Source: Escherichia phage finno
Strand: one strand, 5' to 3'
Sequence record: MN850619.1
DNA: 64,000 nt
The translations under genes were made by a program, and so were the position numbers. Positions 1,822 through 12,101 of this stretch are shown here, piece after piece (the stretch's first letter is position 1; the number at the start of each line of letters is the position of its first letter). The notes below the pieces were generated by a model. It made no database searches. It was not told the DNA's origin and was given only the letters and a program-made list of their open reading frames with translations.

Positions 1822-1897
1822 TGGAGAATCCGAAGGGACTTGAACCCTTATAAACCTGTTTTGCAGACAGGCACATATCCATTTCTGTCACGGATTC
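1822..1897 (-). tRNA. tRNA-Cys (anticodon GCA), CCA encoded
   Basis: Reverse-complement T-arm AAGGG-ACTTGAA-CCCTT, acceptor GAATCCG/CGGATTC, anticodon stem CCTGT/ACAGG with loop giving GCA. Confidence 0.8.
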
Positions 1898-1901
1898 AAA
1901 T

Positions 1902-1994
1902 TGGAGGAAGATACCAGACTTGAACTGGTACACCGATTTCTCAGCTACTGGCAGTTTAGCAAACTGCTCCCTTACCTTTTAGGGTTAATCTTCC
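1902..1994 (-). tRNA. tRNA-Ser (anticodon GCU), class II with long variable arm
   Basis: T-arm ACCAG-ACTTGAA-CTGGT, acceptor GGAAGAT/ATCTTCC, anticodon stem GCAGT/ACTGC, 21-nt variable region, 93 nt with CCA. Confidence 0.8.
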
Positions 1995-1995
1995 A

Positions 1996-2730
1996 TTATT
2001 TCTGCAATGCGTTCTTCATTTCTGGTGTTGCAATAGTGTCGATTACACCAGTTTTACAAGCATCATCAAACCAGTCTGGTAAGATACCTGCTAAGAACCC
2101 ATTGATATTCGTTTTAAGGTACTCTGCAATAAGGGCGGCTTCTTCTTCAATCATCTGCACAACTTCATCTGCATAAGCTGTAATCTTTGAGATACCTTCA
2201 TTAATCTTACTAACAGCCTGATTAGCTAAATCAGAAACAGTATCAAGACCCTTATCAATAGCGTCTTGTAAGTCACTTAACACACCGTTAACACTGTCTA
2301 GTGTGCTGTTAATCATGTCAATAGCTTTTTGACCATACTCTGTAGCAACACCCATAATACCACTGAATGGTGTACAACCAACTTGTTCTCCTGCTGCACC
2401 CATAACATTGGAGTATCCCTTTGCTACCTGCATACGTGATGAAAACTCATCAATAGACTTTTGACCATAGTCTGTTAGGGTCTTAGTAGTTGCTGTAGTG
2501 CTTGTCAGGCTTGTTGTAAAGCTGTTTAGAAGGACTGTTGTAAGTCCAGCAGCAACAAGCTTCTCCTTCATTGTAGGGTCTGTTACAGAGCTAATAGAGC
2601 TTACAAGTGATGTAGAGGCAGCTACGGTTCCACCGAGAACTGCTGCACCAGTAATAAGTGGGTTAGAAAACCCTTTACCGGTTTTTAAGAGATTAAAAAT
2701 CTCCTTACCTTGTTCTGTCATCTCTTTCAT
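1996..2730 (-). CDS. Hypothetical Ala/Thr/Ser/Gly-rich protein inside the tRNA cluster
   Basis: ORF track 1996..2793; start trimmed to internal Met (MKEMTEQ...) because the annotated N-terminus overlaps tRNA-Phe; low-complexity T/S/A-rich core. Confidence 0.5.
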   Translation of the reverse strand: MKEMTEQGKEIFNLLKTGKGFSNPLITGAAVLGGTVAASTSLVSSISSVTDPTMKEKLVAAGLTTVLLNSFTTSLTSTTATTKTLTDYGQKSIDEFSSRMQVAKGYSNVMGAAGEQVGCTPFSGIMGVATEYGQKAIDMINSTLDSVNGVLSDLQDAIDKGLDTVSDLANQAVSKINEGISKITAYADEVVQMIEEEAALIAEYLKTNINGFLAGILPDWFDDACKTGVIDTIATPEMKNALQK

Positions 2731-2748
2731 TAAGCACCTTTGAAATTG

Positions 2749-2823
2749 GTAGTCCAGTGGGATTTGAACCCTCTTCTCATGTTTTTCAGACACGCGCTTT
2801 AACCATATAAGCTACTTGGACTA
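2749..2823 (-). tRNA. tRNA-Phe (anticodon GAA), tentative
   Basis: T-loop ATTTGAA, acceptor TAGTCCA/TGGACTA, anticodon loop gives CUGAAAA. Confidence 0.65.
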
Positions 2824-2828
2824 TAAAT

Positions 2829-2905
2829 TGGGGTGACCTACGGGATTTGAACCCGTATAGACCATGTTCACAGCATGGGTCATTACCATTTATGATAAGG
2901 CCACA
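2829..2905 (-). tRNA. tRNA-His (anticodon GUG) with extra 5' G(-1)
   Basis: T-arm ACGGG-ATTTGAA-CCCGT, anticodon stem CCATG/CATGG, loop gives GUG; extra 5' nucleotide consistent with His G-1. Confidence 0.8.
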
Positions 2906-2935
2906 TTTAAGGACTCTCGTAAGAACCCTTAGAAG

Positions 2936-3011
2936 TGGCAGCGGCATAAGGATTTGAACCTTAATAGGACAGCTTCAGAGACTGCTGCATTGCCAGTTAT
3001 GCTATACCGCT
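2936..3011 (-). tRNA. tRNA-Gln (anticodon CUG), tentative
   Basis: T-arm TAAGG-ATTTGAA-CCTTA, D-stem 4/4 pairs, U8/A14/G18G19/A21 present, anticodon loop CUCUGAA. Confidence 0.7.
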
Positions 3012-3016
3012 AAAAT

Positions 3017-3095
3017 TGGTGCTCCATATCGGATTCGAACCGATACATAACACAGATTTTAAGTCTGGCCTCTCTGCCAATTGGAGTAATGGAGC
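3017..3095 (-). tRNA. tRNA, anticodon region reads UAA (Leu-type) but class I length; assignment tentative
   Basis: T-arm ATCGG-ATTCGAA-CCGAT, perfect acceptor GCTCCAT/ATGGAGC, CCA encoded; anticodon loop CUUAAAA; short variable loop. Confidence 0.6.
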
Positions 3096-3097
3096 AT

Positions 3098-3173
3098 TGG
3101 CGGGGGATGTTGGAATTGAACCAACTTCTTCGATTTCAAAGACCGAGGTTTTAACCTTGTAAACTAATCCCCT
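3098..3173 (-). tRNA. tRNA-Gln (anticodon UUG)
   Basis: T-arm GTTGG-AATTGAA-CCAAC, D-stem 4/4, anticodon stem 5/5, loop CUUUGAA. Confidence 0.75.
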
Positions 3174-3181
3174 TTAAATCT

Positions 3182-3739
3182 TTACTTTCTCAGTGGATGA
3201 ATAAAGAATGCCAACATAACTCTTTCCCTTGAGAATGCTCTTTCTTCTGGGACAACACTTTTAAGTTTCCATCCAACATAAATTCTCCAGTAAAACTGTT
3301 TACCAAAGACTTTAATTGATGGGATAAAAGCGAATAATCCCCAAGCATTACTGTTCCACATTAGGAGATAACCAGTCTGATTATCTTCAGGGTTAGAACT
3401 TACGTTGATATTACCTTTCCACTTAGTAACATCTTTTACATCTCTTCCTAATACATGGTAAGAGAAGTTATAAGCTTTGTTTCTCCAGAGCCATCCAACT
3501 CTCTGCATGTAGACACCCAGCTTACCAATCTTTCTAATCTTAGCCCATCTTTTAACGTGGCCTTCATCACCATCAATCTGGTTGTCATAGGTCTCCATCC
3601 ATCTGAATCCAAAAGGTAAGTGTCCTTTCTTTTCACTGTAGAATGGAACTACGAAAGGTGCTAAGATGACTGCTAGGGTTGCTGCAAATGGTTCTAGTAA
3701 AGCTAGGAAAATCCATGAAGCATACTTCAAATATCTCAT
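3182..3739 (-). CDS. Hypothetical membrane protein embedded in tRNA cluster
   Basis: 185 aa ORF with hydrophobic N-terminus (WIFLALLEPFAATLAVILAPFVVPF), flanked by tRNAs without overlap. Confidence 0.5.
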   Translation of the reverse strand: MRYLKYASWIFLALLEPFAATLAVILAPFVVPFYSEKKGHLPFGFRWMETYDNQIDGDEGHVKRWAKIRKIGKLGVYMQRVGWLWRNKAYNFSYHVLGRDVKDVTKWKGNINVSSNPEDNQTGYLLMWNSNAWGLFAFIPSIKVFGKQFYWRIYVGWKLKSVVPEERAFSRERVMLAFFIHPLRK

Positions 3740-3758
3740 CTAAATAGCCTCTTAAAAT

Positions 3759-3836
3759 TGGTGTTCCAAGACGGATTCGAACCGTCACTAATACAAGGTT
3801 TGAGCTTGCATCCTCTGCCAATTGGGATACTGGAAC
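3759..3836 (-). tRNA. tRNA, anticodon region reads CAA (Leu-type) but class I length; tentative
   Basis: T-arm GACGG-ATTCGAA-CCGTC, acceptor GTTCCAA/CTGGAAC, anticodon loop CUCAAAC, 6-nt variable loop. Confidence 0.6.
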
Positions 3837-3837
3837 A

Positions 3838-3912
3838 TGGTACTCACTAAAGGACTTGAACCTTTTTCTTCATCTTGTAAGGGTGATGTTTTACCATATA
3901 AACTAAGCGAGT
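3838..3912 (-). tRNA. tRNA-Val (anticodon UAC), tentative
   Basis: T-arm AAAGG-ACTTGAA-CCTTT, acceptor pairs 7/7 with one G-U, anticodon loop CUUACAA. Confidence 0.65.
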
Positions 3913-4007
3913 GTGAAAGAGGTCTGAAGTTGTGCCGCTAACTCAACTCCGTGGAATTTGTTACGGTCTTCAGTTGACACCAGCGGTCTTTCACTTGACC
4001 TCTGAAT

Positions 4008-4084
4008 TGGTGCTGCTCACAGGACTCGAACCTGCATTTCCATCCTTACAAGGGATGTGTAATAGCCAATTATACGAAAGCAGC
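4008..4084 (-). tRNA. tRNA-Thr (anticodon UGU)
   Basis: T-arm ACAGG-ACTCGAA-CCTGC, perfect anticodon stem CATCC/GGATG, loop CUUGUAA. Confidence 0.8.
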
Positions 4085-4090
4085 ATTGTT

Positions 4091-4165
4091 TGGAGCATCC
4101 AGAGGGAATCGAACCCTCAACCTCAGTTTGGAAGACTGTAATTTTCCCGTTTAAACTATGGATGC
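4091..4165 (-). tRNA. tRNA-Gly (anticodon UCC)
   Basis: T-arm GAGGG-AATCGAA-CCCTC, perfect acceptor GCATCCA/TGGATGC, loop CUUCCAA. Confidence 0.75.
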
Positions 4166-4171
4166 GCTAAT

Positions 4172-4247
4172 TGGTGGAGTCACTGAGAATTGAACTCAGT
4201 TCCCAAGTTTGCAAAACTCGAATTTTAACCATATAAACTATGACCCC
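4172..4247 (-). tRNA. tRNA-Ala (anticodon UGC)
   Basis: T-arm CTGAG-AATTGAA-CTCAG, anticodon stem CAAGT/ACTCG, loop UUUGCAA. Confidence 0.8.
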
Positions 4248-4253
4248 AATGTC

Positions 4254-4329
4254 TGGTACAGGTGGAGGGAATTGAACCCGTCGTCTTACTGATTAAGAGT
4301 CAGCCGCATAACCATTTTGCTACACCTGC
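4254..4329 (-). tRNA. tRNA-Lys (anticodon CUU), tentative
   Basis: T-loop AATTGAA, acceptor ACAGGTG/CACCTGC, anticodon loop CUCUUAA; close paralog of the tRNA at 5569-5644. Confidence 0.65.
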
Positions 4330-4336
4330 ATTAATT

Positions 4337-4414
4337 TGGTAGGAGACAAGGGATTCGAACCCTCAAACATCTCGTTCTAAGCGAGATAGGTTTACCAATT
4401 ACCGTCAACCTCCC
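4337..4414 (-). tRNA. tRNA, anticodon region reads UAG (Leu-type) but class I length; tentative
   Basis: T-arm AAGGG-ATTCGAA-CCCTC, perfect anticodon stem TCTCG/CGAGA with loop CUUAGAA, acceptor pairs with three G-U. Confidence 0.6.
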
Positions 4415-4668
4415 ATTAAGTCTTTTTAGAGAACTTCTAAGAACCTAAGCAACAAGGTTCCACAACAAGCTGTAATAACCTTAGAAGCCCTCTAAAAAGA
4501 CCTAAAAAGGTCTTTGCATAGTCTTGTTTAATCCGGTGACTAGAACCTTTGGAGAGCTTGATATTATCTCTTCTCCGTGACACCTACTAGGTGCTTTATC
4601 AGTGTGTACGACAATACACGAGGGATACCAAAGCAACATCCGAATGAAGCTTGGCTTTAAATCTTATT

Positions 4669-4759
4669 AGGCGGTAAGTAAAGGAGTCGAACCCTCACCG
4701 TATCTCTACAGTGGCAACAGTTTTCAAGACTGTTTGGCTGCCATTAGCCGCTACCTACC
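4669..4759 (-). tRNA. tRNA-Ser (anticodon UGA), class II
   Basis: T-loop AGTCGAA, perfect anticodon stem ACAGT/ACTGT, loop CUUGAAA, about 20-nt variable arm; CCA apparently not encoded. Confidence 0.75.
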
Positions 4760-4772
4760 CCTAATAAGACTT

Positions 4773-4855
4773 TGGCATGGGACGGAGGAGTTGAACCCCT
4801 TTGAAACGGTTTTGGAGGCCGTTGCTCATGCCTTAGAGTCTTAACATCGTCCCAC
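4773..4855 (-). tRNA. tRNA (83 nt with CCA; anticodon not resolved)
   Basis: T-arm GGAGG-AGTTGAA-CCCCT and complementary acceptor ATGGGAC/GTCCCAC; the internal fold could not be resolved by eye. Confidence 0.5.
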
Positions 4856-4997
4856 ACTATAATTCGAAGCTCACCGTATTATCTCAACACTGTAAAGCCC
4901 CTTCTCAGATTATTTACATGTTCTGGAAAACATGAGATACAGACCACCTCCCTACAGGAAGACCCGCTTAGGTCGTCTAAGTAATCTGCTAACTAAT

Positions 4998-5074
4998 TGG
5001 CACACCCTACAGGATTCGAACCTGTAACTAACGATTTAGAAGACCGTTGCTCTATCCAATTGAACTAAGGGTGC
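4998..5074 (-). tRNA. tRNA-Arg (anticodon UCU)
   Basis: T-arm ACAGG-ATTCGAA-CCTGT, anticodon stem ACGAT/ACCGT, loop CUUCUAA. Confidence 0.8.
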
Positions 5075-5410
5075 ATTAATCTTTAAAAACTCTCTTAGAA
5101 AGCCCTTAAAGATGCCCACCTTATTAATCATACCGTGGGCGAGTACGCCAAATTCTTTGATGAGGGATTGGAAGACCTCACTGGTGTTTAGCCTATCAAG
5201 CTACTGCCAGAAAAACATTGTCGTTTGCATTTATTTTAAATTTGCAAAATAGACGCTACGCAACGAAAACTATTCAGAATATGTACAACAAATTTCCCCA
5301 CATTGTGTTACGTCTAACGCTCATGTATTGGTGTTTGAATTATACATATTATGAAGTATTTTAGTTACTATAAAGTAGTCACATCTCAATGTCAACAACT
5401 TTATTGAAAT

Positions 5411-5486
5411 TGGTACTGGTAGGTGGAATCGAACCACCGATGTTCCCTTATCAGGGGAGTGTTATAACCTTCTTAACTATACCAGC
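5411..5486 (-). tRNA. tRNA-Ile (anticodon GAU), tentative
   Basis: T-arm GGTGG-AATCGAA-CCACC, acceptor ACTGGTA/TACCAGC, loop CUGAUAA. Confidence 0.7.
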
Positions 5487-5487
5487 T

Positions 5488-5564
5488 TGGAGGTTCAGAT
5501 GGGAATCGAACCCACATTCATAGGGCTTATGAGACCCTTGCATTACCTTATCTGCGACTGAACC
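5488..5564 (-). tRNA. tRNA with CAU anticodon (Met, initiator or lysidine-Ile not distinguished)
   Basis: T-arm ATGGG-AATCGAA-CCCAC, perfect acceptor GGTTCAG/CTGAACC, loop CUCAUAA. Confidence 0.7.
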
Positions 5565-5568
5565 ATTT

Positions 5569-5644
5569 TGGTAGAAGTGGAGGGATTCGAACCCATCGCC
5601 TGTCAGATTAAAAGTCTGCCGCATCACCATTCTGCTACACTTCC
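5569..5644 (-). tRNA. tRNA-Lys (anticodon UUU), tentative
   Basis: Paralog of the tRNA at 4254-4329; loop CUUUUAA; acceptor AGAAGTG/CACTTCC. Confidence 0.7.
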
Positions 5645-5844
5645 ATTAAATTATCTTTGTAGATAAGCTACCCAGACTTGCTTAAGGTCTGTAGCGATGT
5701 GCCTTTTTGGGTTTAAATCTAGAATTTACCCTTTCACCCTTTGTGGTCGCATACTCACAGGTAAGCTTAATAACTTATCTACAAAGATAATTACCAGACC
5801 GTTGTTTATCATCTTAAGTGCTACCATTACACCAACTCGACCTC

Positions 5845-5920
5845 TGCCGAGTGAAGGAATCGAACCTTCCCATTTTCTTTACCGAGAAATAGATTGTTTA
5901 AGTTTTGCTGTAAACGGTCT
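5845..5920 (-). tRNA. tRNA-like element (canonical T-arm only); possibly degenerate
   Basis: T-arm GAAGG-AATCGAA-CCTTC is present but no complementary 5' acceptor or clean anticodon arm was found. Confidence 0.3.
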
Positions 5921-6075
5921 TCTGTAAATTTGTTGAGCCAGACCAAGTTTTAAATTTTTTCAAAATTGAATTGGCTTGAAAATATCATACGTACTTGCTG
6001 TATTTGGTCTTCTGCTCCTTTAAAGAATACTCGTAAGAACTCTTTAAGGGAGGGGCTAAATAGCCCTCTCAAAAT

Positions 6076-6154
6076 TGGCGGTTACGAAGGGATTTGAACC
6101 CTCATCATCTCCCGTGACAGGGGAGTATTTTAACCAAAATTAAACTACATAACC
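6076..6154 (-). tRNA. tRNA-Asp (anticodon GUC)
   Basis: T-arm AAGGG-ATTTGAA-CCCTC, perfect anticodon stem CTCCC/GGGAG, loop CUGUCAC. Confidence 0.8.
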
Positions 6155-6159
6155 TTTAT

Positions 6160-6247
6160 TGGTGTGCCGTGTAGGAGTCGAACCTACCGAGTCTCAATGA
6201 CAAGGGATTTACAGTCCCCACCGCTACCATCTACGGGATAACGACAC
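6160..6247 (-). tRNA. tRNA-Tyr (anticodon GUA), class II
   Basis: T-arm GTAGG-AGTCGAA-CCTAC, 15-nt variable arm, anticodon stem AGGGA/TCCCC, loop CUGUAAA. Confidence 0.75.
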
Positions 6248-6316
6248 ATTTAATTTCTATTCAGGCTAAGGACTTGCACCTTACAAATCGGTGAGCAATC
6301 GCTTCTCTCCTAAATT

Positions 6317-6393
6317 TGGCGGTTAGTCAGGGATTCGAACCCTGTGCCATTCGCTTAACAGGCGACCGCACATACCTTATGTGCTTCCTAACC
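6317..6393 (-). tRNA. tRNA-Asn (anticodon GUU)
   Basis: T-arm CAGGG-ATTCGAA-CCCTG, loop CUGUUAA. Confidence 0.75.
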
Positions 6394-6476
6394 ATGTTTA
6401 GTATTACCAGACCGTATCTTTCAATTTTTCCGCTAAAAATTTAATAAATATTGCTGTAAACGGTCTTCTGTAAATT

Positions 6477-6553
6477 TGGAGGCGGGTGCAGGAGTCGAAC
6501 CTGCCGATACCATGCTAATGAGACATGTGAGACGCCCTTTCTCTATACCCGCA
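6477..6553 (-). tRNA. Second tRNA with CAU anticodon (Met/fMet/Ile2 not distinguished)
   Basis: T-arm GCAGG-AGTCGAA-CCTGC, anticodon stem CATGC/ACATG, loop CUCAUUA; apparent U1-C72 mismatch. Confidence 0.6.
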
Positions 6554-6644
6554 ATTCTTAATGACCAGACCAAATCTCTTCTTTGTCCGATTTACCTTCA
6601 GATGAATAAGATTAAGTTTGCTGTAATTGGTCTTCTGTCAAAAC

Positions 6645-6722
6645 TGGCGTTCCAGAAGGGATTTGAACCCTCAGATATCCACTTTGAAAGAGTGGTGACT
6701 TTACCATTTTGTCTACTGGAAC
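6645..6722 (-). tRNA. tRNA-Glu (anticodon UUC)
   Basis: T-arm AAGGG-ATTTGAA-CCCTC, perfect acceptor GTTCCAG/CTGGAAC, perfect anticodon stem CCACT/AGTGG, loop CUUUCAA. Confidence 0.8.
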
Positions 6723-6729
6723 ATTAATT

Positions 6730-6806
6730 TGGTCTCTGTTGGAGGACTTGAACCTCCGGCCTTACCGCCCCAAACGGAACGCTCTACCAAGCTGAGCTAA
6801 ACAGAG
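6730..6806 (-). tRNA. tRNA-Pro (anticodon UGG)
   Basis: T-arm GGAGG-ACTTGAA-CCTCC, perfect acceptor and D-stem, loop UUUGGGG with G37. Confidence 0.8.
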
Positions 6807-6971: not shown

Positions 6972-8387
6972 TTACCAGATATAACGGTCAATCATTACTG
7001 CTTTGAGCATTACGCTGATTGGGTCAAACTTCTCACCACCAAGTAGAGCTTTTAAAGTGGCTGGAGAGAAACCAGATACCATTGCTACACCGTTATCCTT
7101 AACAGATACTTCGCAAGTGCCATTACGGTTTGCTAAGTACCAGAATACCAATTGTGGCATCTCATATCCAGCTTTTTTGTACTTGCTCTGAATTGCTTCA
7201 AAGTTTGTACGACCGTTAGCTCCATCAACCTGATTGAACTCCATATCAGAGAAGATGATAAGCTTACTTGGCATATCTTTCTGAGTCAAGTTGTTTCTTT
7301 TACCTGTCTCAAGAATGCGGTCAAAAGCTGCTTGTAAGTTAGTTGAGCCATATTCAACGTGTCGCATCACCTGACGATGACGGTTTCGTAAATCACCACT
7401 CAGTTCGATGAAGTGAGGGTTTGTTGAATAAACCATTAACTCGTTCTTAAAGCAACCTGTATTGCGTTCTGCTACATACAATGCAAGTGATACACCAATA
7501 TCAAGAGCAGTAATTGAACCAAAATTCACCCAAGACATTGAGCTTGAAACATCAGTCATACACAAGATGTTTTCACCTTCTGCCATCCAGTTTGGTAGTG
7601 CTTTCCACTGCTCATTGGCAACATCTGCATTACCATGCTTGATAGACTTAATCACATCGTATGGGTAAACAGCACCAGCGTTAATCTTAGTCTCACCTTT
7701 TGATAAGGACTCAATGTAAGCTTTGTAGCGTTCTCCATCTTTACGGTTAAACAGTTTTTGGTAACGTGCAGCAGCAAGTGAAGGAATCTTACTGTAGTCA
7801 ATCTTACCAAACTCATTAGCAGAGATTTTTTGCTCAACTGTATCAGATAGTGCAGACAACAGTGTGCGGTACTCTTTCTCACTCAAGTTGGCAAACTTGC
7901 AGAAACGTTTTACAAACTGTTTGTGACGTGGTTTGACTCGTGGTAACCACTTAGCTGCCAAACCTGCTGTTGCAGGGTCTAGTAATGCTGCTTCTAAATG
8001 TTTGAAGGCATCTGTCTCGAAGCGAGTGCCTACGAAGATTTTGAAGTCATCAAAACGACCAAGTTCTGCAATCTTATCCATAATGCGAAGAACCTGTGTA
8101 GGCTCTAAAACTTTATCTTCAATTGCCTGAAGCAAAACAGTTCTGAAGGCTTTACGCTCACCCATACCCTCTCGTACATCTCGCATATGCAGTAAAATAC
8201 GAACTGCAACATCAACATCCTCACGCAAAGCTTTGTAGAACAGGTCTGGTAAGATTTCTACGTTGCTACGGCTTGAACCAGCAGCTTTGTAAAAGTCCAC
8301 AAGAGCAGACATTGATGAAGTATGGTTTACAGCACCATTTTCAGTTCGACCTGCATGAAGGTGCGCATGTTTAAATAATTCGCTCAT
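6972..8387 (-). CDS. vWA-domain protein (MIDAS-like DVSSSMS); possibly DUF2828/TROVE (Ro60)-like
   Basis: 471 aa ORF; N-terminal TENGA...SALVDFYKAAGS stretch and a central DxSxS metal-site motif followed by a vWA-like region; family assignment from motif recollection only. Confidence 0.5.
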   Translation of the reverse strand: MSELFKHAHLHAGRTENGAVNHTSSMSALVDFYKAAGSSRSNVEILPDLFYKALREDVDVAVRILLHMRDVREGMGERKAFRTVLLQAIEDKVLEPTQVLRIMDKIAELGRFDDFKIFVGTRFETDAFKHLEAALLDPATAGLAAKWLPRVKPRHKQFVKRFCKFANLSEKEYRTLLSALSDTVEQKISANEFGKIDYSKIPSLAAARYQKLFNRKDGERYKAYIESLSKGETKINAGAVYPYDVIKSIKHGNADVANEQWKALPNWMAEGENILCMTDVSSSMSWVNFGSITALDIGVSLALYVAERNTGCFKNELMVYSTNPHFIELSGDLRNRHRQVMRHVEYGSTNLQAAFDRILETGKRNNLTQKDMPSKLIIFSDMEFNQVDGANGRTNFEAIQSKYKKAGYEMPQLVFWYLANRNGTCEVSVKDNGVAMVSGFSPATLKALLGGEKFDPISVMLKAVMIDRYIW

Positions 8388-8468: not shown

Positions 8469-8840
8469 TTATTTTTTGAGAGTCGCTACAGCAGAGAACG
8501 TTGGTTTGTTATCTGTCTGTGGCTGACCACCATTATCAGGGGTTTTCTTAGTGTCTGCTGCAAGTGCTTTCATCTCACCTGCTGAGTGAGTAAAGATGGT
8601 TTTACCGACCTCAATCATACTCTTGATGGTTACGTCGTCTGTGTTTAACCCGAACTCTGCAAGCTTAGCAGCGTCCCTTGTAACAATCGCCTCAAACAGT
8701 TTTGCAGCAAACTCAGCAGAATTATCAATGGTCAGTTGAGCTTTTACAAGTGAGCTTTTGTTACGAGAGCCTTTTGGTCTTCCAGATGGGTTTCCAGATT
8801 GGCCTTTTTTAAACTGGCCTTTGTTTGTTCTGTTTTTCAT
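8469..8840 (-). CDS. Hypothetical protein with basic GNPSGRPKGSRNK motif (putative DNA-binding)
   Basis: 123 aa ORF; N-terminal KGQSGNPSGRPKG motif; last gene before the strand switch. Confidence 0.45.
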   Translation of the reverse strand: MKNRTNKGQFKKGQSGNPSGRPKGSRNKSSLVKAQLTIDNSAEFAAKLFEAIVTRDAAKLAEFGLNTDDVTIKSMIEVGKTIFTHSAGEMKALAADTKKTPDNGGQPQTDNKPTFSAVATLKK

Positions 8841-9250: not shown

Positions 9251-9465
9251 AAATCGCAGATATTATAGATTTATATCAAACTGCAAAGAGTCATGGCTAT
9301 ATAACCTCAATTGGAAAGAATAGTCACTATGATGCTTTGACTGGAATGTATTTCAGGGCAATGGCTCAATCTAGTGAACAACACTTAGTGGTTTCTTCCA
9401 GTGAGTTTACTTCGTTTCTCTATTGCAGCAAAATTATAAATCGCAGGAGAACTGAAAAATGTTAA
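9232..9465 (+). CDS. Hypothetical protein
   Basis: 77 aa ORF in the plus-strand operon, overlapping neighbours by a few nt. Confidence 0.4.
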   Translation: MCSSQLEIADIIDLYQTAKSHGYITSIGKNSHYDALTGMYFRAMAQSSEQHLVVSSSEFTSFLYCSKIINRRRTEKC

Positions 9466-10049
9466 CAGTAAGTTTTAATTACAATAGTGATGGCTCTGTA
9501 TCAATTAACTCACCATATGCAAATGACCTACTTAAAGAGCTAGTCAATCAGTGTGAGAGGGGTCTTCACTATGTTCAAAATTCTTTTAAACAGAAGACTA
9601 TTGCTAATAACTTGATGCGTGTAACAGTGACGGCATCAAATCCAAATTATGACTTTGATAGTGAAAGTCCGTACTCATTAGTTGCGCTTGGAGAGAGCAG
9701 CCAATTCAAACTTGTTTGCCACGACTCAGAAACATTCCTTAAGGTATTTTCCAACCTTATCCATAATAATAAGTACAGCTACGTTGATGGTAGTGTAAAC
9801 TTCTATCCAGCAAACTATACATGTTTGTTGACTGATAATATGAGAAAAAGTAAGCAAGAGCCTACAGAAATCTCATTTGATGTGAACTCTAGTCCAGACG
9901 CAGAAACAAGTAAGAACTTTGATATGAGTTATGCGTTGTCACTCAGTAAGAAATCCGAGTTCATTGATTATGTCAATGGATTTGGTTTTAAGTTTGATGA
10001 GAGTATGAATCTTAAAAAACTTAAGAACCTACTTAAGACCAAAGCTTAA
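9459..10049 (+). CDS. Hypothetical protein
   Basis: 196 aa ORF with start overlapping the upstream stop. Confidence 0.5.
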   Translation: MLTVSFNYNSDGSVSINSPYANDLLKELVNQCERGLHYVQNSFKQKTIANNLMRVTVTASNPNYDFDSESPYSLVALGESSQFKLVCHDSETFLKVFSNLIHNNKYSYVDGSVNFYPANYTCLLTDNMRKSKQEPTEISFDVNSSPDAETSKNFDMSYALSLSKKSEFIDYVNGFGFKFDESMNLKKLKNLLKTKA

Positions 10050-10096
10050 GTGTGAATAGGGGCTGATGCCCCTTTAACTATTTATAAGGATATTTA

Positions 10097-10468
10097 ATGA
10101 AAGCTAAGAGTGCAAAAGACTTTTATTGCTTCCTACAATCCTATATCAATTCCGTGCAAAATGGTGAAAGGTACAGCCTTAATGATGTTATCCCAACACC
10201 TTTGACATGGAGACTCAGCAAATGGCCTGAAGAAGATATTACACCAACAATCGAACAGCGCACCTACAAACCTGAAATCAATATTCCAGACTCTGAGAAT
10301 CTATTATATCCAATGTTCCATATTGTTGGTCTTGGAAGATTCCTTATGGATATCCAGTATGTAATTGGTAAAGGTTATAAGGTTAAAGGCATTGTTGTTG
10401 GTGATGTATCTCCACACCACAAAGGTTATTTTAGACTAAACGCACATTTAGAGGCTAAAAAGAAATGA
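10097..10468 (+). CDS. Hypothetical protein, paralog of the N-terminal module of the downstream Ig-like protein
   Basis: 123 aa; aligns by eye with residues 1-110 of the 10465..11598 product (shared FMDLQY motif). Confidence 0.55.
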   Translation: MKAKSAKDFYCFLQSYINSVQNGERYSLNDVIPTPLTWRLSKWPEEDITPTIEQRTYKPEINIPDSENLLYPMFHIVGLGRFLMDIQYVIGKGYKVKGIVVGDVSPHHKGYFRLNAHLEAKKK

Positions 10469-11598
10469 TTAAAGCAAAGACTTACCCAGACTTCAAAGAG
10501 TTTGTGAAGGGCTTCATTGCAAACGTAAAAGCTGGTAAGAGATATGATTTTAGAACATATCAAGAGGCTATTTTACCGCTTACCTACAGTTCGTATTGGC
10601 CTGAAGCTGATATTGCAGAAGTTGAGGAGTTTGACTACAAACCAGACTACAAAGTTCCATTTAGTGATGAGTTGCTTTACAGCATCGGTGCTCAAATGAG
10701 AACTTCTGACTTCTTCATGGACTTACAATATGCAATTATCAATGGTAAAGACGTTGATACAGTTTATTGTGAATGGCTGGCAAGAGTTAAACCATTCTCA
10801 ATGTTGAATGCTAAGTTGAAGGACGCTATCAAGCCACCATCAATTACTCAGCAACCAACCAATCAAACAGTAAATGAAGGTGGTACACTTACCCTAAGCA
10901 TTATTGCAACTAATGCCACTGGATATCAATGGAAAAAGGATGGTGAGGATATCACTAGCGCCACATCTGCAACCTACACAAAACAGTCTGTAGCACCTTC
11001 TGATGCTGGTTCATACACTTGTGTTGTATCTGGAGAGGCTGGGACAAGTGTTACCTCAGATGCGGCAACAGTCACTGTCAACGCACTACCTGTGATTACA
11101 CAACAACCTTCTAGCCAGACCATCAATGAGGGTGGAAACATCAACTTGGAAGTGACTGCAACAGGTGCAACAGGTTACCAATGGAAGAAAGATGGCTCTG
11201 ACATTCCTTCAGCTACAAATGCTACCTATAGCAAGTCTGGTGCGCTGCCAGCAGATGCAGGCTCATACACTTGCGTTGTAACAGGTGCGGGTGGTGCAGT
11301 GACATCTAATGCTGCTGTAGTAACTGTGAACGTACTTCCAGTAATTACTCAACAGCCAACCAATCAAGAAATCACTGAAGGTGAGACCTTAACGTTGAAT
11401 GTTGTGGCAACTGGTGCAACAGGCTACCAGTGGAAGAAAGGTGAGGAAGACATCCTCGATGCAACTACTGCAACTTACACCAAAGAAGGTGCAACCGCTG
11501 CTGATGCAGGAAGCTACACCTGTGTAGTTACTGGTGCAGGTGGCTCTGTCACATCTAACGCAGCAACAGTTACTGTTAACCCAGCAGGGGAGGCATAA
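10465..11598 (+). CDS. Ig-like repeat protein (three tandem Ig-like domains), possible virion decoration/adhesin
   Basis: 377 aa; three ~80-aa repeats each with ITQQP..N.GG.L.L...ATGATGYQWKKDG...AT...DAGSYTCVV.G..G.VTS.AA.VTVN. Confidence 0.6.
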   Translation: MIKAKTYPDFKEFVKGFIANVKAGKRYDFRTYQEAILPLTYSSYWPEADIAEVEEFDYKPDYKVPFSDELLYSIGAQMRTSDFFMDLQYAIINGKDVDTVYCEWLARVKPFSMLNAKLKDAIKPPSITQQPTNQTVNEGGTLTLSIIATNATGYQWKKDGEDITSATSATYTKQSVAPSDAGSYTCVVSGEAGTSVTSDAATVTVNALPVITQQPSSQTINEGGNINLEVTATGATGYQWKKDGSDIPSATNATYSKSGALPADAGSYTCVVTGAGGAVTSNAAVVTVNVLPVITQQPTNQEITEGETLTLNVVATGATGYQWKKGEEDILDATTATYTKEGATAADAGSYTCVVTGAGGSVTSNAATVTVNPAGEA

Positions 11599-12062
11599 TG
11601 CAACTCTCAAGAAAAGGCTTAGAAGCTATTAAGTTCTTTGAAGGTCTTAAGCTAGAGGCTTACGAAGATTCTGCTGGAATCCCTACAATTGGGTATGGGA
11701 CAATCCGTATTGCTGGTAAACCTGTTAAGATGGGTATGAGAATCACGGCTGAACAAGCTGAACAGTATCTTCTCGCAGATGTTGAAAAGTTCGTTGCAGC
11801 AGTGAACAAAGCCATCAAGGTTCCAACTTCTCAGAACGAGTTTGATGCACTTGTAAGTGAAACATACAACATTGGCATCATAGCTATGCAGGACTCTACA
11901 TTTATCAAGCGCCACAACGATGGTAATAAGGTCGGTTGTGCAGAAGCTATGCAATGGTGGAACAAGGTTACAGTCAAAGGTAAGAAGGTTACTTCAAACG
12001 GCCTGAAAAACAGACGTAGAATGGAAGCTGACATTTATCTTGACAGTGTATACCCAAAGTAA
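11598..12062 (+). CDS. Endolysin, GH24 lysozyme (lambda R / P22 gp19 type)
   Basis: 154 aa; EGLKLEAYEDSAGIPTIGYG...NEFDALVS..YNIG matches the GH24 phage lysozyme catalytic region. Confidence 0.8.
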   Translation: MQLSRKGLEAIKFFEGLKLEAYEDSAGIPTIGYGTIRIAGKPVKMGMRITAEQAEQYLLADVEKFVAAVNKAIKVPTSQNEFDALVSETYNIGIIAMQDSTFIKRHNDGNKVGCAEAMQWWNKVTVKGKKVTSNGLKNRRRMEADIYLDSVYPK

Positions 12063-12074
12063 TATCTTCATAGG

Positions 12075-12101
12075 CTCCTTCGGGAGCCTTTTTTATTTTC
12101 T
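12075..12101 (+). terminator. Rho-independent terminator (GGCTCCTTCGGGAGCC + T-run)
   Basis: Perfect GC hairpin with TTCG tetraloop followed by TTTTTTATTTT immediately after the endolysin stop. Confidence 0.7.

Follow-up and report, generated by a model that had tools for sequence, protein, structure and literature searches.

Hex-Dec of a Felixounavirus: a hexamer decoration protein with a probably deletion-derived Ig-like array and an upstream paralogue of its capsid-binding domain

Judged by its sequence, the 377-aa product of ORF 10465-11598 is the hexamer decoration protein of its genus, Hex-Dec, already characterised in Felix O1-like phages. The reading that very probably accounts best for the whole locus combines this identity with an Ig-like array derived by deletion and an upstream duplicate of the Hex-Dec capsid-binding domain (CapBD); its final step, an accessory role for the duplicate, is proposed with low confidence. 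The identity of Hex-Dec, its location on the capsid and the variation of its Ig count from 1 to 4 were published in 2025. Absent from the published accounts that we found are the Ig types A-D with their origin by repeated deletion, and the co-expressed, charge-reversed, Ig-less CapBD copy that is kept in most Ounavirinae lineages outside Kolesnikvirus. This small upstream gene is the sole part of the locus not yet described.

The window, i.e. the whole stretch of 64,000 nucleotides that was analysed, is Felixounavirus DNA, ~97% identical to Escherichia phage skuden and 93-97.5% identical to many Felixounavirus genomes. The two same-strand ORFs of 123 and 377 aa proposed in the first-pass annotation are both present, and the endolysin gene is the third and last of the unit that they open. 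The features of the locus are as follows.

10059-10072, + strand: GC-rich hairpin GGGGC-TGAT-GCCCC followed by TTTAAC, between a 196-aa upstream ORF and the paralogue (read from the sequence)
10097-10468, + strand: 123-aa ORF, Ig-less CapBD paralogue (ORF list, BLASTP, PHROG, AF2 fold match, dN/dS)
10465-11598, + strand: 377-aa ORF, assigned as the capsid decoration protein Hex-Dec (PDB search, Pfam, PHROG, synteny, published cryo-EM and mass spectrometry)
10465-10830, + strand: CapBD, Hex-Dec aa 1-122 (ungapped alignment to 9ncf_S and 9c2d_S)
10837-11088, + strand: Ig-like domain 1, aa 125-208, orthology type A (Pfam, domain typing)
11089-11337, + strand: Ig-like domain 2, aa 209-291, B/C chimera (informative-site map)
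11338-11586, to 11595 with the C-terminal tail GEA, + strand: Ig-like domain 3, aa 292-374, orthology type D (Pfam, domain typing)
11598-12062, + strand: endolysin (Pfam Phage_lysozyme, E 7.1e-40)
12072-12099, + strand: intrinsic terminator AGGCTCC-TTCG-GGAGCCT followed by TTTTTATTTT (terminator scan; annotated at the matching place in wV8 and AYO145A)

The paralogue stop overlaps the Hex-Dec start (ATGA), the Hex-Dec stop overlaps the endolysin start (TAATG), and the terminator at 12072-12099 ends the unit. The hairpin at 10059-10072 was not called by our simple terminator scan because its T-run is short; the same site is an annotated rho-independent terminator in wV8 and AYO145A. Gene order is that of Bas63 (bas63_0125 / 0124 / 0123), wV8 and AYO145A. 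As in Bas63, where the three genes are also far from the structural module, the Hex-Dec gene adjoins the endolysin gene outside that module: a search for the major capsid protein (MCP) across the 64-kb window, made to check its Asp221, gave no match.

Searching the PDB with phmmer matched Hex-Dec to 9ncf_S, the 'Immunoglobulin-like domain protein' of the Bas63 capsid (E 2e-285), and to 9c2d_S/9c3a, a 372-aa 'tail protein' chain (E 8.6e-170) that we assigned to Sf14 gp20 by its length and the accompanying paper. The orthologues are gp124 of Bas63 (Escherichia phage JohannRWettstein; PDB 9NCF chain S), Sf14 gp20, Felix O1 gp36 and wV8 gp41. Felix O1 gp36 was found in virions by mass spectrometry (14 peptides, 44% coverage; PMC3185647), Sf14 gp20 was likewise detected, and cryo-EM of Bas63 and Sf14 placed the orthologues at capsid hexamer centres (PMC12609058, PMC11821841). 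The earlier suggestion of a virion surface protein with a variable repeat number is thus borne out among relatives: orthologues are present in virions, and their Ig count runs from 1 to 4.

In the T=9 heads of Bas63 and Sf14, monomeric Hex-Dec fills the pentamer-proximal hexamers, of which there are 60 along the facet edges (PMC12609058, PMC11821841). We transfer this location to the present protein because its CapBD is ~98% identical to that of Bas63 (9ncf_S, no gaps). Arg79 and Arg107, which in Sf14 form salt bridges to MCP Asp221 at an Asp-lined hexamer centre (PMC11821841), are both kept (...AQM-R79-TSD..., ...WLA-R107-VKP...). The N-terminal 122-aa CapBD would accordingly be a monomeric plug in the middle of every pentamer-proximal hexamer, 60 in all, anchored to Asp221 by Arg79 and Arg107 if the Sf14 contacts hold here, and the three acidic I-set Ig-like domains would extend outward as a flexible fibre. 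Sf14 gp20 (Shigella phage, Mooglevirus; PDB 9C2D/9C3A) belongs to the same family, with an N-terminal CapBD of 118 aa, both arginines and three Ig-like domains; its phage is of another genus and its Ig domains are more diverged. It binds pentamer-proximal hexamers only, a choice that the Sf14 authors explained by a displacement of Asp221 in the three-fold hexamers. The domain itself has a narrow distribution: a CapBD/paralogue profile run against 1.84 billion representative proteins recovered 12 clusters only, all Ounavirinae-like, and fold searches of BFVD and the PDB gave nothing beyond the CapBD family, the BFVD matches all being Ounavirinae. An internal duplication of the CapBD lobes was considered and set aside, its profile signal being weak (P 0.004).

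Most GenBank/RefSeq records of the matching region, and the PHROG family of Hex-Dec itself (phrog_3995), carry the label 'tail protein', and the 'major tail protein' families PHROG 158, 853 and 3575 also match the 377-aa product. That it is a tail or major tail protein is almost certainly wrong, and we rejected this candidate. Apart from the orthologous phrog_3995, the PHROG tail families match in the Ig region alone (158, 853 and 3575 at residues ~96-208 and onward), and Ig domains are spread promiscuously among phage structural proteins. Pfam found no tail-tube or sheath domain, the N-terminal domain was modelled in capsid hexamers in both cryo-EM studies, and the Bas63 authors explicitly called the label wrong. 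Its correction is the practical gain for this genome. The first-pass annotation neither identified the N-terminal module as a capsid-binding domain nor noticed that the label is mistaken.

We then turn to the Ig-like region. Pfam confirmed three tandem Ig-like units in the 377-aa protein (Ig_3 E 5.8e-34 in three stretches, I-set 1.2e-26, Ig_2 2.4e-25). They had been described as near-identical, which they are not: pairwise identity is 68-71% in amino acids and 64-67% in nucleotides, synonymous sites have reached saturation (pS 0.68-0.79), and exact in-register DNA matches are at most 11-12 nt long. As for the DNA repeats reported at ~10830-11580, conserved blocks of 41 and 23 nt do recur at 249-252-nt spacing, but recurrence is limited to these, and Tandem Repeats Finder reported no ~250-nt array.

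Across the genus, the domains fall into four orthologous types, A-D; identity is 91-93% among domains of one type and 69-74% from type to type. Our comparison confirmed the published range of 1-4 Ig domains (PMC12609058), and the relatives' arrays are ABCD, ABD, ABC, AD or single A/D-chimera domains. The shorter arrays are chimeras produced by in-frame deletion, and 7 or more different breakpoints can be told apart among them. No variant holds two copies of one type, only losses or chimeras being observed, and hence there is no sign of amplification. Chimeras were mapped by codon-level informative sites. In domain 2, nt 1-198 of the unit are type B (73-74 B-like against 1-4 C-like sites) and nt 199-249 are type C (0-2 B-like against 11 C-like), with the crossover at ~11284-11298, inside the conserved SYTCVVTGAGG block. 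The present array (A, B/C chimera, D) would have arisen from an ancestral A-B-C-D by a single in-frame 252-nt deletion with its crossover in this block, and comparison points to independent deletions of like kind in other members of the genus. wV8 has the same architecture as the window, whereas Bas63 has all four domains (A-B-C-D). The four types thus appear to be old, and the variants in Ig number to descend from a four-domain ancestor by in-frame deletions that left chimeras, assuming that the type-C sequence of these was inherited from a four-domain parent of the same lineage and not gained by exchange between phages.

The contrary reading takes the repeats as recent, near-identical tandem duplications whose copy number shifts fast by homologous recombination, as in a contingency-type array. 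Copy number does differ between phages only ~3-7% diverged in this region, and the breakpoints do lie in conserved blocks. We nevertheless hold this very unlikely, given the low identity of the repeats, the orthology of each type throughout the genus and the lack of any doubled type; repeats that are recent or near-identical are ruled out by repeat identity, pS and Tandem Repeats Finder. Of the first-pass annotation's recombinationally variable repeat number, the variability therefore stands; its proposed source in near-identical repeats does not, because the repeats are old and codon-diverged, and the deletion chimeras take its place. Variation of Ig number by repeated independent deletion would bear on the tuning of phage display fibres and on Hex-Dec as a display scaffold.

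The 123-aa ORF upstream had been proposed to be paralogous to the first ~110 aa of Hex-Dec, and BLASTP agrees (37/101 identical, 37%, E 2e-17, against the N-terminal ~120 aa). PHROG profiles, in which the ORF is phrog_4463, recover the relation in both directions; 26 invariant columns are common to the paralogue and CapBD clades, and one profile recovered both clades from the 1.84 billion proteins. An AF2 model of low confidence (mean pLDDT 61.8) has 9ncf_S as its best and only meaningful PDB match (E 1.1e-3, TM 0.57, 123 columns). NCBIfam and Pfam gave no match. The ORF is evidently a true, diverged and Ig-less CapBD paralogue, probably an old tandem duplicate of the CapBD alone. Its counterparts are Felix O1 gp37 (by gene order), wV8 gp42, Bas63 gp125 and VpaE1 ORF40c. 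A ribosome-binding site, AAGGA, lies 8 nt upstream of its start, and as read from the sequence the paralogue is translationally coupled to Hex-Dec; it would be co-transcribed and coupled with both Hex-Dec and the endolysin.

Charge and anchor have changed in the paralogue. It is basic (pI 9.1 against 5.0), and it lacks both capsid-anchoring arginines: the Arg79 position is Gly in all paralogues (Gly78), and the Arg107 position is His107 here and His or Gln in Felixounavirus and Mooglevirus-type paralogues, the L031 paralogue, a distant one, alone having Arg there. A basic paralogue could still bind an Asp-lined hexamer centre. Mooglevirus paralogues are 72-78% identical to the window's, and the gene is missing from Erwinia phage phiEa104 (Kolesnikvirus) and from a distant lineage with a single Ig-less CapBD gene.

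Could the paralogue be a functionless, decaying relic of the tandem duplication? Its non-synonymous evolution is ~2.5x faster than that of CapBD, the anchoring arginines are gone, it has decayed to a remnant in phage SP116, and it may be shortened in SP3_SHan-2021, judged solely by the 1437 bases that its alignment spans (other one-Ig records: ~1560). We consider decay quite unlikely all the same: dN/dS is 0.11-0.14 (~0.12, against 0.04 for CapBD), far under 1 and indicative of purifying selection, an intact ORF of 122-124 aa is present in 27/28 IMG/VR loci as well as in a lineage only ~48% identical, and the gene combines a good ribosome-binding site with translational coupling to Hex-Dec.

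The paralogue is not among the virion proteins in the published Felix O1 proteome, nor among the 22 of VpaE1 as described in the main text, although it would yield seven good tryptic peptides, candidates including FLMDIQYVIGK, WPEEDITPTIEQR and YSLNDVIPTPLTWR; these are two studies of limited sensitivity. The same proteomes, as described, argue against a fusion of the two ORFs by programmed -1 frameshifting on the run A-AAA-AAG before the paralogue stop, which would make a ~500-aa protein with two CapBD-like modules. The heptamer T-AAA-AAG stands 3 nt 5' of the TGA, and Hex-Dec is read in the -1 frame with respect to the paralogue. Fraser and co-workers are said to have noted in 2006 that Ig domains are often added to phage structural proteins through frameshifting. 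However, any ATGA overlap automatically gives the -1 frame, and the heptamer varies, being GAAAAG in wV8 and other sequences in Mooglevirus-type and further lineages; what is conserved instead is a Shine-Dalgarno-like GAGG for re-initiation. We discarded the fusion, which is highly improbable, on this lack of conservation in wV8 and Mooglevirus-type lineages.

A second hexamer-centre decoration protein, perhaps in the 20 three-fold hexamers that Hex-Dec leaves empty or competing with it over occupancy, is unlikely but deserves a fuller account. The paralogue has the sequence core and, in its low-confidence model, the fold of CapBD; it is co-expressed, under purifying selection and basic, facing an Asp-lined hexamer centre (PMC11821841), and its different basic residues could read the shifted Asp221 of the three-fold hexamers. 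On the other side, neither the Bas63 nor the Sf14 cryo-EM study reports density at other hexamers, every paralogue has Gly for Arg79, and the gene is lost in SP116 and missing in Kolesnikvirus; to these the proteomes of Felix O1 and, in its main-text description, VpaE1 add their silence. Three-fold averaging would smear a monomer on the axis, and at low copy it could escape the proteomes, so a paralogue on three-fold hexamers would go unnoticed. We likewise doubt the wider proposal that two paralogous plugs read the two T=9 hexamer classes, Hex-Dec the 60 pentamer-proximal ones and the paralogue the 20 three-fold ones or, as a transient cap, the procapsid. If the paralogue does bind capsids, the two would be paralogous decoration proteins that distinguish quasi-equivalent hexamers. 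Most likely in our view, at low confidence, is a non-virion accessory protein of head decoration or assembly, a kept but dispensable gene whose product might, for example, pair transiently with Hex-Dec or with the hexamer centre, both of which are acidic. The PhageMaP text does not mention g125, the Bas63 paralogue.

Known decoration proteins resemble Hex-Dec in part. T4 Hoc is likewise a hexamer-centre monomer with a string of acidic Ig-like domains and is dispensable in the laboratory, but its CapBD is C-terminal, so that the order is reversed, and the two CapBDs have been contrasted as to larger size, distinct topology and pseudo-C2 symmetry (PMC12609058). The Hoc-like PHROG families 2973, 4069 and 3945 match Hex-Dec at residues ~121-294 only, and PHROG and PDB searches gave no sequence match to Hoc outside the Ig region; Hoc is an analogue of Hex-Dec, not a member of its family. 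T5 pb10 (PDB 5LXK, 8ZVI) also binds hexamer centres, with a single Ig domain that is homologous to those of Hex-Dec (E ~1e-11). Its CapBD has no sequence match: the full-length 8zvi_a matches at chain residues 80-158 only, 5lxk_A is the Ig domain, and pb10 is absent among the fold matches of the paralogue model. By analogy with Hoc and pb10, the Ig domains of Hex-Dec probably confer weak adhesion that depends on host or environment; for carbohydrate or mucus as the ligand, the analogy is with T4 Hoc only.

A distant orthologue is P104_00380 of the Erwinia phages phiEa104 and phiEa21-4 (Kolesnikvirus), with a CapBD of ~31% identity and one Ig-like domain. Its gene lies immediately 5' of the lysozyme gene, as Hex-Dec adjoins the endolysin; the annotated type of the Ig domain is Big_2/invasin, not I-set, and there is no stand-alone paralogue gene.

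The sole functional datum on Hex-Dec comes from the PhageMaP screen: Bas63 g124 knock-outs were less fit on E. coli S17-1 and not on three K-12 strains (bioRxiv 10.1101/2024.10.10.617714).

The 377-aa ORF for Hex-Dec, the decoration protein at the centre of capsid hexamers, lies between an ORF for an Ig-less paralogue of the capsid-binding domain at its N terminus (CapBD, residues 1-122) and an endolysin gene.

10059-10072, GC hairpin GGGGCTGATGCCCC, 24 nt 5′ of the paralogue ORF; a terminator in the wV8 and AYO145A annotation
10097-10468, (+) strand, as the next two ORFs; paralogue ORF, 123 aa
10465-11598, (+) strand, as its neighbours; Hex-Dec ORF, 377 aa
11598-12062, same strand; endolysin ORF, 154 aa (Pfam Phage_lysozyme, E 7.1e-40)
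12072-12099, strong intrinsic terminator, 3′ of the endolysin ORF

An ATGA overlap joins the paralogue and Hex-Dec ORFs, and a TAATG overlap couples Hex-Dec to the endolysin ORF, which also has a strong GGAGG site; with the flanking hairpin and terminator, these overlaps make the three genes look like one translationally coupled unit. Gene order is the same in phage Bas63 (bas63_0125, 123 aa; bas63_0124, Ig-like domain protein; bas63_0123, endolysin). The locus region was 93-97.5% identical to > 200 genomes of Felix O1-like phages, of which Escherichia phage skuden matched best. One matching record bears the name 'Staphylococcus phage', and the best match of the VpaE1 paralogue is 'Staphylococcus phage SA1' (99% identity); a record that places a Felix O1-like sequence under such a name seems either mislabelled or contaminated.

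Judged by every feature that sequence can test, the 377-aa protein belongs to the Ounavirinae Hex-Dec family. Two matches in the PDB, searched by sequence, were decisive. The first (E 2e-285), 9ncf_S, is annotated in the Bas63 capsid as 'Immunoglobulin-like domain protein', and residues 1-122 align with it ungapped at ∼98% identity. The second (E 8.6e-170), 9c2d_S/9c3a, is a 372-aa 'tail protein' chain, which we equate with Sf14 gp20 because of its length and what the Sf14 paper describes. The cryo-EM study of Bas63, which names the protein Hex-Dec, describes a monomer bound only in the facet-edge hexamers of a T=9 capsid (PMC12609058). Sf14 gp20 is placed identically, with one copy per asymmetric unit and hence 60 per capsid, and its Arg79 and Arg107 form salt bridges with Asp221 of three major capsid protein subunits (PMC11821841); both arginines are kept in the window protein. 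Felix O1 gp36, whose gene adjoins that of the lysin gp35, was recovered from purified virions (14 peptides, 44% coverage; PMC3185647), so that the surface location proposed in the first-pass annotation agrees with both the virion proteome and the capsid structures. In a genome-wide knock-out screen (PhageMaP), the importance of Bas63 g124 was greater with E. coli S17-1 as host than with three K-12 strains (bioRxiv 10.1101/2024.10.10.617714). From this structural, proteomic and screening literature the main feature is already known, structural and comparative work on Hex-Dec having appeared in 2025; what remains new is how the Ig array came about through deletion chimeras, together with a charge-reversed and unstudied paralogue of CapBD.

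Carried over directly from Bas63 and Sf14, the model for the window protein would be a capsid plug bearing an Ig fibre. Its Ig domains may be adhesive by analogy with Hoc and pb10, the one observation in support being the S17-1 fitness effect. T4 Hoc is similar in function, but homology is limited to the Ig domains, domain order is reversed and CapBD has no match in it; T5 pb10 shares orientation and the Ig domain, but its capsid-binding domain does not match. CapBD is confined to a narrow family, a search of 1.84 billion proteins yielding 12 representative clusters. Within CapBD (10465-10830), hhalign of the two halves matched residues 6-29 to 76-99 in the expected helix-strand register (P 0.004). 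At sequence level this is a faint sign of the internal duplication to which the pseudo-C2 lobes reported for Bas63 would go back. With lobes, gene and Ig array all duplicated, duplication is seen at three scales. A CapBD fold match in BFVD, A0A6B9M0A5 of Shigella phage Z31 ('Immunoglobulin I-set domain protein', 134 aa), may be a zero-Ig Hex-Dec cut down to CapBD or an annotation fragment.

The three Ig-like repeats noticed at first pass were borne out by Pfam (Ig_3, 5.8e-34; I-set, 1.2e-26; Ig_2, 2.4e-25; three stretches each), and occupy residues 125-208, 209-291 and 292-374. Their description as near-identical did not hold: protein identity between the units is only 68-71% and DNA identity 64-67%, synonymous differences are saturated (pairwise proportion 0.68-0.79), and the longest exact in-register DNA match is 11-12 nt. 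Tandem Repeats Finder found no ∼250-nt array in the Ig region, where recurrence at the DNA level consists only of conserved 41-nt and 23-nt blocks spaced 249-252 nt apart. Repeat number does vary among relatives, from one to four, as predicted for Felixounavirus species in the Bas63 paper (PMC12609058); two surveys gave a similar picture.

Ig domains in Hex-Dec of relatives. Loci: 28 IMG/VR loci plus wV8 (two loci end at a contig end; one IMG/VR locus is wV8). Records: 216 matching phage records from GenBank, sampled at even spacing, Ig number inferred from alignment span.
1 Ig: 210-211 aa, 4 loci; ∼12 records
2 Ig: 294-298 aa, 11 loci; ∼18 records
3 Ig: 377 aa, 10 loci; ∼21 records
4 Ig: 461 aa, 2 loci; ∼5 records

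All Felixounavirus Ig domains cluster into exactly four orthologous types, A-D, with 91-93% identity within and 69-74% between types. Clustered as whole domains, the arrays read ABCD, ABD (the window), ABC, AD or a single domain that groups with A or D. When breakpoints were mapped at codon level from type-diagnostic sites, the shorter arrays proved to be in-register chimeras with differing breakpoints.

Breakpoints in the shorter Ig arrays (L-numbers, comparison loci from other phages).
B/C, codon ∼67-70: window, wV8
B/C, last ∼8 codons: L014, L015
Clean B-to-D junction: L011, L012, L017
A/C, near unit end: L002, L008, L013, L016
B/D, codon ∼26: L010
C/D, codon ∼55-65: L007
A/D, codon ∼60, ∼40 and ∼30: L018, L019 and L020 respectively

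Thus, three of three single-domain arrays are A/D chimeras, and those of L019 and L020 keep just the N-terminal part of repeat 1, in contrast to the Bas63 paper, where repeat 1 is stated to be conserved (PMC12609058). In the window, unit 2 is B-type at 73-74 diagnostic sites versus 1-4 C-type over nt 1-198, and B-type at 0-2 versus 11 C-type over nt 199-249, which places the crossover at ∼11284-11298, inside the conserved SYTCVVTGAGG block. None of the arrays mapped holds the same type twice. The variable repeat number suggested earlier stands, but it is not amplification of labile repeats. The most plausible source of the variation is an old four-domain array that lost sequence in frame, repeatedly and independently, or else the exchange of alleles so formed, a detail absent from those portions of the two structural papers that were available (PMC12609058, PMC11821841).

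The upstream paralogue belongs to phrog_4463 ('unknown function') and matched nothing in Pfam or NCBIfam. Its kinship with the N-terminal ∼120 residues of Hex-Dec, also claimed at first pass, was upheld by 37/101 identical residues (E 2e-17) and reciprocal PHROG matches. An AF2 model of modest confidence (pLDDT 61.8) gave a sole meaningful PDB match, the Bas63 CapBD (E 1.1e-3, TM 0.57, full length), all others having E > 2; BFVD matches were confined to Ounavirinae. The paralogue is basic (pI 9.1), versus 5.0 for CapBD and 4.5 for whole Hex-Dec. Every paralogue has Gly in place of Arg79, and those of Felixounavirus and Mooglevirus type have His or Gln in place of Arg107. Fusion to Hex-Dec by a -1 frameshift at A-AAA-AAG is highly improbable and was rejected because this heptamer is not conserved whereas a GAGG re-initiation signal is.

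The paralogue, which by gene order should be gp37 in Felix O1, has no entry among the virion proteins of that phage (PMC3185647; the name is not given there), although seven good tryptic peptides are expected. By description, the 22 virion proteins of VpaE1 are those of Felix O1 and, in addition, gp54, gp58 and gp68, a list that leaves out its paralogue, ORF40c. The paralogue goes unmentioned in both structural papers (PMC12609058, PMC11821841) and in the PhageMaP text (bioRxiv 10.1101/2024.10.10.617714). A low-copy second decoration protein on the 20 three-fold hexamers would suit the kinship with CapBD, but seems unlikely beside these virion lists. As a guess, we favour an accessory protein outside the virion, which would be produced together with Hex-Dec late in infection, act transiently on acidic Hex-Dec or the Asp-lined hexamer centre and be dispensable.

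The gene is intact (122-124 aa) in 27/28 IMG/VR loci, as it is in a metagenomic phage with a ∼48%-identical paralogue and the same paralogue/Hex-Dec/lysozyme synteny. With dN/dS of 0.11-0.14, versus 0.04 for CapBD and 0.05-0.09 for the endolysin, it is constrained yet more relaxed than either. That it is a decaying relic would fit this relaxation, but is unlikely, slightly more so than a second decoration protein. In Salmonella phage SP116 the gene is a decayed remnant, so an isolated, viable phage lacks it; what is left amounts to ∼170 bp, in fragments that are out of frame (VKDFYC..., VIVGDVS..., LRLNAHLEDKKK; L019 2830-3000 in vB_SPuM_SP116), between the hairpin and the Hex-Dec start. A shorter alignment span in SP3_SHan-2021 (H157; 1437 bases) may reflect a similar deletion.

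Erwinia phage phiEa104 lacks the paralogue, a single CapBD-plus-Ig gene preceding the lysozyme. In a neighbour-joining tree the paralogue and Hex-Dec sequences form separate clades, and the single-copy Erwinia genes branch close to the base; this tree and two single-copy lineages would fit a duplication within the Felixounavirus/Mooglevirus branch. In the second and still more distant lineage (L033, metagenomic contig SRR33913824_1108), a single Ig-less 153-aa CapBD gene (4001-4462) lies directly 5′ of the lysozyme gene, with flanking synteny unchanged (DUF2828/DUF7788 gene, DUF5681 gene, 185-aa ORF). Its C-terminal tail is lysine-rich and of low complexity; with this tail in place of Ig, CapBD is joined to different display modules across lineages. 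Two allele groups of the paralogue exist within Felixounavirus, with 96-100% and 84-88% amino-acid identity to the window copy (10097-10468 versus L007, L008, L011, L012, L014, L017 and L020); most differences are in the inter-lobe loop (residues ∼49-68). The CapBD adjoining either group stays 96-99% identical, a pattern that hints at mosaicism with its boundary between the paralogue and Hex-Dec genes.

Several further observations concern the flanks. According to the PhageMaP preprint (bioRxiv 10.1101/2024.10.10.617714), the endolysin orthologue Bas63 g123 is a trigger of the Ec67 retron defence system. Upstream of the locus is a minus-strand array of 25 tRNA genes (1822-6806), of a type typical of the Felix O1-like genus, followed by a 471-aa ORF (6972-8387) and a 123-aa ORF (8469-8840); in wV8 the corresponding ORFs carry the annotations 'RNA-binding protein' and DUF5681. 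The 196-aa ORF upstream of the paralogue (9459-10049; phrog_4034, function unassigned in PHROG) is syntenic with the locus in all lineages examined, including phiEa104 (29% identity), and its distant L033 homologue gives a faint Phage_Inh_N hint in Pfam.
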